Shown here: piece by piece, positions 54,211 to 63,599 of the stretch
Position numbering within the stretch: the first letter of the stretch is position 1
How the letters are laid out: each line of letters begins with the position of its first letter
DNA from: Salinispira sp.
Lineage (GTDB): Bacteria > Spirochaetota > Spirochaetia > DSM-27196 > Salinispiraceae
DNA: 64,000 nt
Assembly (NCBI GenBank): GCA_965602015.1
Contig: OZ271918.1
Span: forward strand, 1,600,001 to 1,664,000
Reading direction: 5' to 3'
Position numbers and translations under genes: made by a program
Notes under the pieces: generated by a model
Database searches by the model: none
The model's input: the letters and a program-made list of their open reading frames with translations, nothing else
What the model was told of the DNA's origin: nothing

Positions 54211-55095
54211 TTAGATCTCCAGAGTGAACTCCGCGTCGCCGAGTATGCGGCGGTTGCCCTGGTAATCCCGGATTCCGCCGACATTATAGACCTTGGTGTA
54301 GCCCAGTTCGTCGAGGGCCGCCTTGACGTATCCGGCCCGGGTTCCCGATCCGCACATCAGGAAGATTTCCCGATTTTTGTCTCCAAAAATATTCTGGAGG
54401 ATGGCTCGGCTGGTGATGTCCGCGGGGGTAAAATCCCAACCGGTATTCCTGGTCAGCGCGCGGTTATCGAGGTATTCGAAGAATGAGATAAACTCAAAGC
54501 TGTCCACCGAGCCGGCGGTGTACCGGTCTCCCACATTCCGCAGATCGACATACTTCGCACCGTCGCGATACAGGAAATTGTCGATGTTGGCCATGGTCAC
54601 CTCTGCGGGAAGAGCAGACTCGCCGGCGAATTCGCCGTCTCCCAGAATCTTGTTCTCACCGGCGTAATCGCGGATACCGCCGGCGTTGAAAACCTTGGTG
54701 TAGCCGATGGATTCCAGGGCAGCCTTGGTATATCCCGCCCGGGTCCCCGAACCGCACATCAGCACGACTGCTTCGTCCTTGGGTCCGAAAACATTGGTGA
54801 GCATGGCTTCGCTGACTACATCAGAATCAGAAAACTCCCATCCGTTGTTTCTAACCAGCGCCCTGCCCTCCAGGTATTCGAAGAAGGGAACCACTTCAAA
54901 TCCGGCCACATAGCCGCCGCTGAACATATCGGAAAAATTCCGCAAATCGATGAACCGGGCATCGTATGCCAGATAATTGTCGATATTTGCCATGGTGATT
55001 TCTTCATTGCCGCTGAGTTCGGCTGCTGAAGAACCGCAGCTGGCCAGCGTAACGGCCATCACCAGAGTTACAAGAAATACTACTGTTTTTTTCAT
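54211..55095 (-). CDS. tandem-rhodanese-domain lipoprotein
   Basis: Lipobox LAS-C; two repeats, each with DLR, CGSGTRA and GYTKV.N.GG. Confidence 0.85.
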   Translation of the reverse strand: MKKTVVFLVTLVMAVTLASCGSSAAELSGNEEITMANIDNYLAYDARFIDLRNFSDMFSGGYVAGFEVVPFFEYLEGRALVRNNGWEFSDSDVVSEAMLTNVFGPKDEAVVLMCGSGTRAGYTKAALESIGYTKVFNAGGIRDYAGENKILGDGEFAGESALPAEVTMANIDNFLYRDGAKYVDLRNVGDRYTAGSVDSFEFISFFEYLDNRALTRNTGWDFTPADITSRAILQNIFGDKNREIFLMCGSGTRAGYVKAALDELGYTKVYNVGGIRDYQGNRRILGDAEFTLEI

Positions 55096-55169
55096 TGCTC
55101 TCTCCTGTTTACCGGATCATCCGGCGTACTGTTTTGTATGAAATAATCGATTACTTTTCGTGCTGCCGC

Positions 55170-55754
55170 TCACATGTAGCGTTCATTGTGGTACTTGAAC
55201 AGACCCTGAAGCACCCGTACCGCGTTGTTCGGAGTAACCGTCGCGCCGGTGTAGGCATCTGCTTCTCCGTGCATCGGTTCGATGGCATTGATGGATTCCT
55301 GGGAAGCTCCGAACAGATTATCCGCAGTGTACATCGCCATTAGTTCCTTGACCGGAGTTCCGTCCCAGCTGACTTCACTGTCGCCGTAAAGACCGCTCTG
55401 ATAGTGGTCAGTTGAATCCATTTCCCAGGAAATATAATCAACGGCGCCGTCGTTCTTGTTCAGTTCGACGTATGCCACCGACCAGTAATTCACCTGCGGG
55501 GCCCTACAGGTACAGGCGATGTAGGCAACCTGGTATTTTACGGTCTCGAGCTGCTCGTATTCGAACAGCACGAAGGCTACCATTTCGGTTTCTTCCCGGT
55601 GACCGTTCACGTGGGTCCAGTAAAAGGCATTATCGACGGTAATGCCCGTCGTTTCCGCCGGCGCCGCTGCCTCCGGGGGAGGAGCCTGTTGACCGCAGCT
55701 GACGGCCAAGGCCACAATAAAAAGCACTATTGAAAAAAATGCAATTTTCTTCAT
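55170..55754 (-). CDS. lipoprotein with CxC motif and FMN-attachment (flavinylation) motif
   Basis: Lipobox AVS-C; ACTCR; DAYTGATVT; GGAGG RBS. Confidence 0.7.
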   Translation of the reverse strand: MKKIAFFSIVLFIVALAVSCGQQAPPPEAAAPAETTGITVDNAFYWTHVNGHREETEMVAFVLFEYEQLETVKYQVAYIACTCRAPQVNYWSVAYVELNKNDGAVDYISWEMDSTDHYQSGLYGDSEVSWDGTPVKELMAMYTADNLFGASQESINAIEPMHGEADAYTGATVTPNNAVRVLQGLFKYHNERYM

Positions 55755-60069: not shown

Positions 60070-63000
60070 CTATACCAGTTCGAGCACCGCCCCGGCGTAC
60101 GTGAACCCTCCGCCGAACGCCGTGAGTCCAAGGGTCTTTGCTGAAGATGAAGGATCATCGAGTATGCGCTCCAGACAGAGGGGGATGGTCGATGATGACG
60201 TGTTACCGTACACGGCAATCATGGAGTACACTTTTTTCTTGTCGACCTTCATACGCTGACGAACGGCGTTTATTATCCGCTGGTTGGCCTGGTGAGGTAC
60301 AATGAGATCCAGGTCATCGCTTTGGTACCCCGACTGCTCCGCCGCCAGCTCAAGCGACTTTATCATTGCCCGCACCGCCTTTTGGTATACCGCCGGCCCG
60401 TCCATGGTCACCACATCATCGGCATTTCCCTCCACTGCGGGAACGGTCAACGCCCGGTTTCGATCCGCCGCCGCAAGGGTGACCGGCCGGCGGATTATCA
60501 TTTTGGGAACCACATCACCCCCTTCGACGCAAATCAGACTTGCGGTAGCGGCGTCGCCGAATACCGGCGCGGTATCCGGGTCTGAGGTGTCGATTCTGCG
60601 GGAAAGCAATTCAGCGCTGATAATAAGCAGGGGCCGGTTCGCACTATCAGCCTGCATAAAATCATGAGCCTGCTGAAGGGCATAGATGTAGCCCGAGCAG
60701 GCAGCGGAAATATCGACGGCAGGAATTTCAAGCTCTTCATCGCCGGCCAGAGCGTCCAAAACCCGGCAGGCCAACGAGGGGGTTATTTCATCCGGAGTGC
60801 CGGTTGAACAGATTATGCCGCCGAGCTGTGCCGGTGCAATATGCACGTCGCTCAAGAGCTTTTTTGCGGCCTCAACGGCCATCGAGGTAAGGTTCTGGGA
60901 TTCATCGGCCCAAAAGCGGCTGCTGATTCCCGTGCGCTTGACGATGTCCTCGGGGCTCCAGGTGGGACACATTGTGGAGATTTCCTCATTGCTCACCACC
61001 CGCTTGCCGGTGACGCTGCGGACCCCGGCGATTCCCACCCGTTTAGCCGCAGCTGGGCCCGAGGAAGCCGTGCCGGTTTCTGTTGCGCTGTCGGCTTTTC
61101 CGCTGGAGGACAACCGGCGGAAACGGAACTGAATTTTCGGCGTCCCGGGCTCCTCCCGTGTGGGAGGTTTGGGAACCGCCGATGACTCGGTGAGAATCTT
61201 AATTAGCGGTTTACCGACAGCCACCTCATCGCCCTCCTCGGCGATAAAGGAGTCCACGGTGCCGGACATGGGGCTGGCGATTTCTGTAACGGCCTTGTCG
61301 GCTTCCACGCTGGCAACCAGCTGACCTTCTTCGATGACGTCGCCGGGCTTAACCAGATATTCAATTACCGTCACCATCTCATCGGACGGACTCGAGCCGA
61401 TAGCCTCTATGAGGAAACTGCCCTCCTCCGCTGCAATCGCTTTGTCCCACTCAATGCTGCCTCCCAGCAGATCGACTGCGGTTTCGAGTATGCGCTGATA
61501 TGAGGGCAGAACTTCGAGCTGATTGCCGAAGTTACACGGGACATAGGTATCATCGCGGACGACCCGACGGGCTTCGAATCCATCGGAAATAGCTTCAGAT
61601 AATTCTGCCAGCACCTCGGACGCAAAACCCGCAGATTTATTATCCTCATGGGCGATGATGATTTTGCGGGTTTTTTTCACAGACGAGATAACGCAGTCCT
61701 TATCCCAGGGAGAAAGGCTTCTGAGGTCGATGACCTCCGGCTCGACGCCTAATTCTTCAAGGGCGGCGGCGGTTTTGTACATGAGGGCCATGGTGTTCCC
61801 GTAGCCCAGGAGGGTTAAGTCGGAACCGCCTCGAACGATCCGCGCCTTTCCAATGGGTACAAAGTGATCACCGATATCTTCACTGGTTGCCTGAGCCCGA
61901 TCATTGAGACAATTTTTCGGATAATAAAACATGGTCGGTCTCCCCGATGCGAAACTCGCGTTCAACAGACCGGCGGCATCTCCCGCAGTAGAGGGCATCA
62001 CCACATCGACGCCCGGCGTGTGCACTCCCAAGGCCTCAAGACTGGATGCGTGAAAGGGTCCGAGACCGGGCTTGTACCCTCCGGAGGTAATCATGAGAAT
62101 GACCGGCGCCTGCCAGCCTCCATCGCTGCGCCAGTACATGCTGCCCATTTCGGAAAAAATCTGGTTGTACGCTATGGGGAGAAAGTCGGCGAACTGGATA
62201 AATCCTACCGGCCGGCCTCCGGCCAGCGAACGGCCCACGCTTACTCCCGCAATGGTTGATTCGCTCAAGGGGCTGTTCTGAACCCTGCCGGGATAGGCGG
62301 TGCTCAAACCCTTTGTTATGCCGAACACGTCCCCTTTGGGATCTTCAAGATCTTCGCCGAACAGGCTGACCCGTTCATCCTTGCCGAGCTGTAGCCGAAA
62401 AGCTTCCCGTATGGCTTCCAGCATGGTCACCCCGCCGGCGTTCCCGCGGTATTCTACTCTCGCCAGGTATTCCGGATTCAAAGGCGCCTTGGCATCGTGA
62501 ACCGCTGCGGGCTCGGGGCTTCTGCGGCTCGACTCTGCGGCTGCGCGCACCTGTTCGGCAACGTCTTTCTCCAGGGTTTCAAGCTCGGTTTCCGTCCTGC
62601 CCGATTCGATGAGCCGTTTTCTTGTGTGGGCGATGGGATCGCGGGCTTCCCGGACGTTGAGAATATCCTCTGAACTCCGGTAGACGCTCTGATCATCCGC
62701 ATTGGTGTGATTGGTTAGTCTGTCGACCTGGAAAATAACGATGGCGGGCTTGCGGTCATTCCGCATGGCTTCGACAATTTCGAATAGTTGGCTGTGGGCC
62801 GTTGCCAGGTCGCATCCGTCTATTCTATGTATGGGTATGCCGTAAAAGGAGTCCGCCTCTCCCTCAGGTCTTGAAAAAAATGTCTGGCCCCCGGTTTTGG
62901 TGGATATTGCGTAAACATTGTCTTCGATGAAATACAGAACCGGAAGATTCTCCCGTACAGAATGGGCTATGGATTCAAGGACTTCGCCTTCCTGGGTCAT

Positions 63001-63450
63001 ACCGTCGCCCAATGCGCAGAGCACCACCGGCGCACCGTCCCGGTCTTTTACTTCCGCAGCGATTCCCGCCGACGGAAGGGCATTATTCCCTACCGGACCG
63101 ACAAGACTGAGCACGTTGTGTTCCGGTGAGCTGATATGAGCGCTCATCTGTCGTCCCCGGGAATGCGAAGCATCCTTGCAGAACAAGCTGTGAAAAAACA
63201 TCTCGACGCTGACACCGCGGGCGATCATAAGCGCTTTGTCGCGGTAATGGCAGTGCAGCCAGTCCTGAGGTCCAAGAATATCCGCCAGGACGACAGATCC
63301 CTCATGACCCGCACCGGACACATGGAAAAATGCCTCGCCCCGCTTTGTAAAACCGTCCTCTAACCGGTCGAGTTCCCGGGCTTCAAGCATGTGGCGATAT
63401 AACGATATGAGGCGATCCTCAGTCAGATTACCTGATTTTGTTTGACTCAT
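60070..63450 (-). CDS. fusion of 2-oxoacid dehydrogenase E1alpha + E1beta + lipoyl domain + beta-ketoacyl-ACP synthase III
   Basis: HYRD, GDG..N TPP motif; GED..GDVF, SPLSE, QFADF, GPFH; VEADKA lipoyl Lys; KAS III AACSG, GDAA, PHQAN, GNTSS, FGGG. Confidence 0.92.
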   Translation of the reverse strand: MSQTKSGNLTEDRLISLYRHMLEARELDRLEDGFTKRGEAFFHVSGAGHEGSVVLADILGPQDWLHCHYRDKALMIARGVSVEMFFHSLFCKDASHSRGRQMSAHISSPEHNVLSLVGPVGNNALPSAGIAAEVKDRDGAPVVLCALGDGMTQEGEVLESIAHSVRENLPVLYFIEDNVYAISTKTGGQTFFSRPEGEADSFYGIPIHRIDGCDLATAHSQLFEIVEAMRNDRKPAIVIFQVDRLTNHTNADDQSVYRSSEDILNVREARDPIAHTRKRLIESGRTETELETLEKDVAEQVRAAAESSRRSPEPAAVHDAKAPLNPEYLARVEYRGNAGGVTMLEAIREAFRLQLGKDERVSLFGEDLEDPKGDVFGITKGLSTAYPGRVQNSPLSESTIAGVSVGRSLAGGRPVGFIQFADFLPIAYNQIFSEMGSMYWRSDGGWQAPVILMITSGGYKPGLGPFHASSLEALGVHTPGVDVVMPSTAGDAAGLLNASFASGRPTMFYYPKNCLNDRAQATSEDIGDHFVPIGKARIVRGGSDLTLLGYGNTMALMYKTAAALEELGVEPEVIDLRSLSPWDKDCVISSVKKTRKIIIAHEDNKSAGFASEVLAELSEAISDGFEARRVVRDDTYVPCNFGNQLEVLPSYQRILETAVDLLGGSIEWDKAIAAEEGSFLIEAIGSSPSDEMVTVIEYLVKPGDVIEEGQLVASVEADKAVTEIASPMSGTVDSFIAEEGDEVAVGKPLIKILTESSAVPKPPTREEPGTPKIQFRFRRLSSSGKADSATETGTASSGPAAAKRVGIAGVRSVTGKRVVSNEEISTMCPTWSPEDIVKRTGISSRFWADESQNLTSMAVEAAKKLLSDVHIAPAQLGGIICSTGTPDEITPSLACRVLDALAGDEELEIPAVDISAACSGYIYALQQAHDFMQADSANRPLLIISAELLSRRIDTSDPDTAPVFGDAATASLICVEGGDVVPKMIIRRPVTLAAADRNRALTVPAVEGNADDVVTMDGPAVYQKAVRAMIKSLELAAEQSGYQSDDLDLIVPHQANQRIINAVRQRMKVDKKKVYSMIAVYGNTSSSTIPLCLERILDDPSSSAKTLGLTAFGGGFTYAGAVLELV

Positions 63451-63599
63451 CGGTGCTCCTCCAGTGCTATCCGGCTCGGCGCCGGTCCTGGCCAGTATAT
63501 ATGATTGATATAGATAACTTCTACCGATATAACCGAATCTAATTCAGGTAAATAAAAAAATAACTTGATTTGCGACGGAGAATATCGAAGTATTTGGGT

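Follow-up and report, generated by a model that had tools for sequence, protein, structure and literature searches.

A single-chain E1–lipoyl–KAS III protein of Salinispira sp. as a candidate synthase of branched fatty-acid primers without CoA

In textbook fatty-acid initiation the primer arrives as acyl-coenzyme A (acyl-CoA), and the mix of primers is set by CoA pools together with the selectivity of FabH, a β-ketoacyl-ACP (acyl carrier protein) synthase III (KAS III). A gene of Salinispira sp. raises the question of whether a primer might instead be made and condensed on one chain, without CoA. The gene lies on the reverse strand (63450..60070) of the 64,000-nucleotide stretch of contig OZ271918.1 analysed here (positions 1,600,001 to 1,664,000; hereafter, the window) and is a single open reading frame (ORF) without internal stop, encoding a protein of 1,126 amino acids (P0001) in which the E1α and E1β parts of a thiamine diphosphate (ThDP)-dependent 2-oxoacid dehydrogenase, a lipoyl domain, a linker and a KAS III follow one another. 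The original prediction, made from the sequence of the window, had described this architecture and had proposed that the KAS III takes the place of the E2 acyltransferase. P0001, whose KAS III lacks the CoA-adenine clamp, is in our view probably a single-chain enzyme that makes primers for branched fatty acids without CoA.

In the mechanism that we propose, of which all chemistry, including substrate and product, is predicted from sequence, the ThDP-dependent E1 would decarboxylate a 2-oxoacid derived from valine, leucine or isoleucine and reductively acylate a lipoyl group on K719; the acyl-dihydrolipoyl thioester would acylate C918 directly, in place of acyl-CoA; and the KAS III would condense the acyl group with malonyl-ACP, giving a branched 3-oxoacyl-ACP for type II fatty-acid synthesis. 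The arm would be lipoylated by the host's LipA and LplA-like ligase and reoxidised in trans by its dihydrolipoamide dehydrogenase (E3). As α2β2 E1s and KAS IIIs are each two-fold symmetric, P0001 would be expected to act as a homodimer. If true, passing the acyl group from the lipoyl arm to the ketosynthase would constitute a new kind of acyl transfer, one that dedicates a single 2-oxoacid to a single primer and insulates primer supply from acyl-CoA pools and catabolism; the fusion could then explain the iso/anteiso lipids of free-living spirochaetes without a canonical branched-chain 2-oxoacid dehydrogenase (BCKDH) and enable laboratory hosts to make branched fatty acids with one added gene. 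No published description of the fusion was found in the literature searched, which left most subscription journals outside its coverage.

A conserved protein family with a lost CoA clamp

The ORF call and the Pfam and NCBIfam matches bore out the predicted order of parts (Table 1). As had been claimed, neither an E2 core (PF00198) nor an E3-binding domain (PF02817) was found in P0001 by a Pfam scan at E ≤ 0.01, genome-wide E2 and E3 matches all lay outside the window, the Cys-His-Asn triad of the KAS III is intact (C918, H1053 and N1083), and the codons assigned to the lipoyl lysine and the catalytic cysteine are exactly those of K719 and C918. The KAS III scored above the cut-off of NF006829 (263.5 versus 249) and under that of TIGR00747 (228 versus 292). 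All parts were folded confidently by AlphaFold2 from a 148-sequence alignment (mean pLDDT 93.9, pTM 0.72), with pLDDT below 50 confined to residues 1–3 and 778–799; as a single-chain model, it shows folds and not the reach of the lipoyl arm. In Foldseek searches, parts of P0001 matched FabH and Thermus BCKDH β with target TM scores of 0.92–0.93 and, among the matches listed, solved chains covered part of P0001 at most (best query TM 0.46). The stretch equivalent to the linker has a median length of 23 residues across aligned fusions (5th–95th percentile, 14–39).

The 119 best homologues listed have the identical Pfam set, lengths of 1,096–1,229 amino acids and 53–78% identity to P0001. Aligned with P0001 (120 sequences in all), every one retains K719, C918, H1053 and N1083, the E1 residues G148, G150, N178, H248, E397 and H467, and the E716-A717-D718-K719 motif; a crude ExxK[AST] pattern matched 212 of 220 fusions. 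Within the host class, a search with residues 251–783 of P0001 as the query found the fusion in 52 of 201 sampled genomes, 50 of them with open frames of at least 1,073 amino acids. The original prediction had allowed for homologues that are always split genes, as would follow from an assembly artefact; all 119 best homologues listed keep the full set of domains, and they, the residue conservation in 120 of 120 sequences and the 50 long open frames rule out an artefact or a chance ORF. Of 301 host-phylum genomes, 8 gave a match to the fusion, and the 80 loci returned have record titles that cover Spirochaetota, Planctomycetota, Verrucomicrobia, Lentisphaerales, Armatimonadota, Sumerlaeia, one cyanobacterium and Proteobacteria. 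No two-gene form of the fusion turned up at E ≤ 1 × 10−48 among 301 genomes of the phylum of G310, where no search aimed at shorter proteins was made. The Marinobacter halodurans copy (L057:2-11047) lies near ORFs that by eye resemble transposases, clusters with spirochaete sequences in both of the trees described below and is possibly horizontally transferred. KAS III was matched three times in one 14-Mb genome (G317), within open frames of 1,114–1,302 amino acids (contigs C258, C253 and C351), reflecting either multiple copies or a mixed bin.

The KAS III of the fusions was compared with FabH in an alignment of 220 distinct fused domains, Escherichia coli FabH (whose numbering is used below) and 39 stand-alone KAS IIIs of carrier genomes; these controls were the host's two and 37 of 40 fetched regions (L133, L158 and L160 yielded no ORF by the filter and were dropped). 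According to the text available of PMC4606726, Trp32 and Arg151 of FabH sandwich the adenine of CoA, which is also bonded to Thr28, and five of the five solved FabHs shown have Trp and Arg where P0001 has D835 and P958. Both clamp residues (W32 with R or K at 151) were kept in none of the 220 fused domains versus 37 of the 39 stand-alone FabHs, and W32 alone in 2 versus 38; after thinning to below 60% identity, W32 remained in 2 of 79 fused and 23 of 24 stand-alone domains. Fifteen kinds of residue occupy position 151 across the fusions and 12 occupy position 32, as expected for sites under relaxed constraint. Catalytic residues, by contrast with the clamp, were retained (C112 in 220, H244 and N274 in 219 each), as were R249 (214) and an Arg or Lys at position 257 (206); K214 was mostly lost, likewise in many controls. 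The R249 and K256/K257 region is the basic ACP-docking patch of FabH, and the His and Asn of KAS III are required for malonyl decarboxylation. The clamp loss is specific to the fused KAS IIIs and gives independent support, from sequence, to a direct transfer from acyl-lipoyl to KAS III.

Several features of the family and of this comparison weigh against that reading. The controls were taken as top-scoring PF08545 matches and so lean canonical, and the fused domains represent one lineage. A Trp at the T28 position, present in 173 of the 220 fusions (39 of 79 non-redundant ones), could either replace W32 as an adenine stack or fill the adenine site. The same-genus copy (G280, contig C1, about 813800–817300; locus L177) is spread over three frames, with breaks near P0001 residues 188–207 and 703–706 that reflect either sequencing error or a pseudogene. 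The G280 genome has seven PF08545 matches.

Relatives, origin and known counterparts

Relatives of the E1–lipoyl unit were gathered by profile search, and the C-termini of 34 were scanned. The same unit was found joined to an E2 core (12 of 34), a thioesterase, an unassigned domain or polyketide synthase/non-ribosomal peptide synthetase (PKS/NRPS) parts; for example, P0150 carries a thioesterase, P0147 an unassigned domain, P0183 a ketosynthase/condensation/adenylation megasynthase, and P0201 and P0153 E2 cores (one with an ACP). All 12 E2-fused sisters have a PF00198 core with DHR; the motifs of the E2 cores just named are DHRxxxG and lack the usual Asp. In a midpoint-rooted FastTree phylogeny of 79 E1 regions, which contains no characterised BCKDH, a clade of 45 rows (support 94) took in all 38 sampled KAS-fused ones, with one E2-fused protein and the thioesterase form nested among them; the E2-fused P0182 and P0187 belong to its sister group. 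In the KAS III tree, which was left unrooted by its long-branch outgroup, one branch (SH-aLRT 99) parts the fused domains from 40 stand-alone FabHs. W32 persists in two fusions, P0164 and P0165, which are the nearest to canonical FabH in the KAS III tree and the earliest in the E1 clade.

The KAS III occupies the position that E2 has in the sister single-chain E1–lipoyl–E2 proteins, and the two trees fit, without proving, a replacement of E2 by KAS III with the clamp lost afterwards. We lean, if only modestly, towards a family-wide account along these lines, in which E1–lipoyl–KAS III proteins would be self-contained initiators with a lipoyl thioester as the KAS III donor; the KAS III would have taken over from the E2 core in a single-chain dehydrogenase ancestor, given up its CoA site step by step and become the sole KAS III of some genomes, and the E1–lipoyl unit would be a swappable loading module, used also with E2, thioesterase and PKS/NRPS partners.

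Set beside known systems, the fusion would work like a BCKDH E1 plus FabH but is strictly a member of neither family. With the BCKDH complex and FabH of Bacillus subtilis and Staphylococcus aureus, where branched acyl primers feed FabH (in the portion available of PMC12625853), it shares a ThDP-dependent E1, a lipoyl domain and a Cys-His-Asn KAS III; it differs in being one chain, without an E2 core, an E3-binding domain or an adjacent E2 or E3 gene, and in a KAS III without W32 and R151. The likeness to FabH itself (E. coli; Aquifex, 2ebd; Haemophilus influenzae, 3il3) extends to the fold, the triad and R249, whereas the CoA clamp is replaced, F87 is Thr, the score falls under TIGR00747 and the fused domains form a separate branch. 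The nearest precedent is the ThDP–lipoyl–acyltransferase–ACP module of quinocarcin and scleric acid biosynthesis (QncN/QncL/QncM and SclQ1-4), in which, as far as the text available of PMC6335953 goes, an E1-like ThDP enzyme and a lipoyl arm deliver an acyl unit to carrier-protein chemistry. Modules of this Qnc/Nap/Scl type retain an acyltransferase of the E2 kind, start from ketose phosphates and charge an ACP of their own within a biosynthetic cluster. In the fusion, a condensing enzyme stands in for the acyltransferase, and there is neither PF00198 nor an adjacent dedicated ACP. The single-chain E1α–E1β–lipoyl–E2 proteins (P0153, P0182, P0187, P0193, P0201 and others), known here from sequence, have the same N-terminal three-part unit in the same order but end in the PF00198 core.

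Substrate, partners and alternative explanations

The assignment of a branched-chain substrate is soft: it draws on sequence similarity and on motifs that give no clean answer. In its favour, the best solved match of both E1 halves of P0001 is Thermus BCKDH (PDB 1um9), the GRQ[ML] loop is found in about 208 and QFADF in 212 of the 220 fusions (GRQM and QFAD being common to BCKDHs), and the E1 motifs differ from those of the host pyruvate dehydrogenase (PDH). F87 is replaced by Thr in 193 of the 220 fusions, which would argue for a larger primer: Phe87 confines the E. coli enzyme to acetyl, and a Thr widens the pocket for larger chains, as described in the parts available of PMC12625853 and PMC3734052. 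The '2-oxoisovalerate dehydrogenase E1' labels that databases give to homologues are automatic. On the other side, Pseudomonas putida BCKDH α scored 56 bits, below PDH αs at 77; PDH βs scored 183–191 versus 202 for Thermus BCKDH β; the host's Aco/PDH-like β has QFSDF; the proteobacterial carriers G301 and G314 also have an E1 with canonical BCKDH motifs; and among the carriers are a Marinobacter and two cyanobacteria, from groups not known to be rich in iso/anteiso lipids. The proposal that the KAS III replaces E2 and is loaded directly by the arm is upheld in part: the clamp loss and the swap in the E2 slot speak for it, both at the level of sequence, and its branched-chain substrate is a soft assignment.

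Published lipid profiles, by which some free-living spirochaetes produce branched acids, serve as context rather than as a test. In the portion available of PMC4511686, a free-living spirochaete type strain has 11.7% iso-C15:0 and 4.3% ante-C15:0, S. africana has 3.0% iso-C15:0 and two other strains have none; FabH and oxoisovalerate are not mentioned in the available main text of this type-strain genome paper. Iso-C13:0 and iso-C15:0 are listed as dominant in Oceanispirochaeta M1/M2 (bioRxiv 10.1101/2023.09.28.559987, text available), and fusion P0117 is labelled unclassified Oceanispirochaeta.

The host genome (99.67% complete) contains three E2 cores, all next to an E1 of their own (2-oxoglutarate dehydrogenase with SucA, PDH with PdhAB, and an Aco/PDH-like pair), two E3s above cut-off, two stand-alone KAS IIIs with W32 and R151 intact, LipA above and an LplA-like ligase under cut-off, and, among precursor genes, two IlvD/Edd-family and two class IV aminotransferase matches; no further E1 with BCKDH motifs was found in it. 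All 38 carriers tested have an E3; in the class sample, one was found in 51 of 52 carriers versus 96 of 149 non-carriers (Fisher P = 1.5 × 10−7, overstated because kin are not independent), the 52nd carrier having an E3 split over two contigs; two genomes (G309 and G319) have an E3 gene about 2 kb upstream of the fusion on the same strand. The arm is therefore likely, on this genomic evidence, to be reoxidised by a host E3 in trans.

Other aspects of the partner survey (57 genome entries, with 50 of the 80 loci used and with G130 and G332 being one genome) count against the proposed mechanism. The expectation that carriers would lack a BCKDH E2 or a separate fabH was not borne out, as an E2 elsewhere in the genome was found in 57 of 57 entries and a stand-alone KAS III in 54. 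A CoA route to branched primers exists in the host, which has VorB above cut-off besides its two clamp-intact FabHs; branched acyl-CoA is therefore probably makeable without the fusion, weakening the case for it as the only route. The two KAS III Pfam domains match nothing but the fusion in three carriers (G293, 99% complete, G342 and G345), which would suit a broader or acetyl primer.

The last point bears on an alternative that we hold to be possible but doubtful, in which the same CoA-free chemistry would serve another substrate or destination (acetyl primers from pyruvate; a 2-oxoacid that is longer or aromatic; or priming of specialised lipids or polyketides and not of membrane fatty acids). 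In its favour, Thr at position 87 is the long-chain state of Mycobacterium tuberculosis FabH in the available text of PMC12625853 and PMC3734052, and in a Xenococcus metagenome-assembled genome (MAG; L087:322-6382) a Glu/Leu/Phe/Val dehydrogenase and a second, PRK09258-like KAS III lie beside the fusion in divergent orientation. Another destination is suggested by the locus L110, where an ACP gene lies immediately 3' of the fusion; by P0134 (1,942 amino acids), a complete fusion followed by a ketoreductase, an ACP and a C-terminal domain without assignment, resembling a self-priming mini-synthase; by a Pirellulaceae MAG (L118:101-11237), where the fusion is followed by an OleD-like reductase, FabF, an ACP-like ORF, two FAD oxidoreductase-like ORFs, FabZ and FabI; and by the patchy distribution outside spirochaetes (5 of 301 genomes of the phylum of G310). 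However, the gene stands alone here and in most of the 88 loci examined, without carrier or tailoring genes, no neighbour is conserved across phyla among these loci, and whole spirochaete families carry the fusion (6 of 6, 6 of 6 and 3 of 3 genomes), a pattern like that of a housekeeping gene; the E1 motifs are also unlike those of the host PDH. Neighbours that recur (aconitase-like, NeuB and SerRS-like) reflect spirochaete synteny, and a conserved operon was rejected.

We judge as improbable a CoA-dependent channel, in which a host E2 would make acyl-CoA in trans for the tethered KAS III, with W831 as the adenine stack, or a variant in which the KAS III would act solely as a lipoyl-to-ACP or lipoyl-to-CoA transacylase. 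The E2s in every carrier entry would allow for such a channel, as would the retention of R36 in 177 of the 220 fusions, the frequent Trp at the T28 position and a PDH operon 11–17 kb from the fusion in several spirochaetes, and the transacylase variant has a parallel in the Qnc/Scl modules, where a lipoyl arm charges an ACP and no condensation takes place (PMC6335953, in the text available). Yet E2s and non-fusion E1s are equal in number in eight of eight near-complete Spirochaetota carriers, leaving no spare E2 for the fusion, the host PDH operon is about 600 kb distant, the residues at positions 151 and 32 are diverse, W831 has a counterpart in only about half of the non-redundant fusions, and the malonyl-decarboxylating His and Asn are kept in 219 of 220. 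A dedicated E2 partner nearby was rejected as a candidate, the E2s 11–17 kb away in G081, G336, G338 and G346 belonging to PDH operons with their own E1. A passive fusion, with independent halves or one of them vestigial, is very improbable: the closest relative's copy in three frames (G280) would agree with it, as would a mutual-information (MI-APC) covariation analysis that gave no clear lipoyl–KAS III signal from a noise-dominated, too shallow alignment (Neff 129), but the catalytic residues of all three parts are kept in 120 of 120 sequences, nearly all class carriers have long open frames and the clamp is lost only in fusions.

The locus in the window

The gene for P0001 (Table 1) is flanked by the convergent endonuclease III gene (nth) on one side and a divergent ORF without a Pfam match on the other; its neighbours comprise nth, a short-chain dehydrogenase/reductase and an ORF of no known family. 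Promoter and terminator scans around the gene gave counts near chance (5 versus 2.7 and 6 versus 4.1). In Logan, one contig covers the whole stretch with zero differences and possibly equals the source sample.

Table 1 Features of the fusion gene and of P0001 (window positions; aa, residues of P0001)
Feature	Position	Strand	Detail and basis
Whole ORF, P0001	60070..63450	-	E1α-E1β-lipoyl-KAS III, 1126 aa; sequence, Pfam, AlphaFold2
Shine-Dalgarno-like GGAGGAG	63456..63462	-	5 nt ahead of ATG; sequence
E1α, aa 1-325	62476..63450	-	ThDP motif GDG148-150..DN177-178, GRQMSAH loop, H248
E1β, aa 341-660	61471..62430	-	E397, QFADF 419-423, H467
Lipoyl domain, aa 678-753	61192..61419	-	EADKA motif, PF00364 above cut-off; predicted lipoyl-K719 codon 61294-61296
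Post-lipoyl conserved segment, aa 757-777	61120..61182	-	KPxTRExPGxP; predicted ordered, strand 770-775
Ser/Thr/Ala-rich flexible linker, aa 778-799	61054..61119	-	pLDDT <50
KAS III, aa 800-1126	60073..61053	-	Triad C918/H1053/N1083; R1058 (= E. coli R249) kept
KAS III C918 codon	60697-60699	-	Sequence
KAS III H1053 codon	60292-60294	-	Sequence
KAS III N1083 codon	60202-60204	-	Sequence
CoA-clamp replacement W32->D835	60946-60948	-	Alignment to FabH
CoA-clamp replacement R151->P958	60577-60579	-	Alignment to FabH
CoA-clamp replacement T28->W831		-	Alignment to FabH
Acyl-pocket change F87->T890	60781-60783	-	Alignment to FabH
Pfam, E1 part			E1_dh aa 19-315; Transket_pyr aa 341-515; Transketolase_C aa 534-640
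Pfam, C-terminal part			Biotin_lipoyl aa 693-752; ACP_syn_III aa 913-973; ACP_syn_III_C aa 1038-1124

At three other loci (L181, L182 and L183), several spirochaetes have a fused E1 of 820–837 amino acids with an ELMYxDF motif beside E2 and E3 genes. Elsewhere in the window, a lipoprotein-like ORF on the reverse strand (54211-55754) contains, by eye, two tandem rhodanese-like repeats and lies beside a second lipoprotein-like ORF with a CxC motif.

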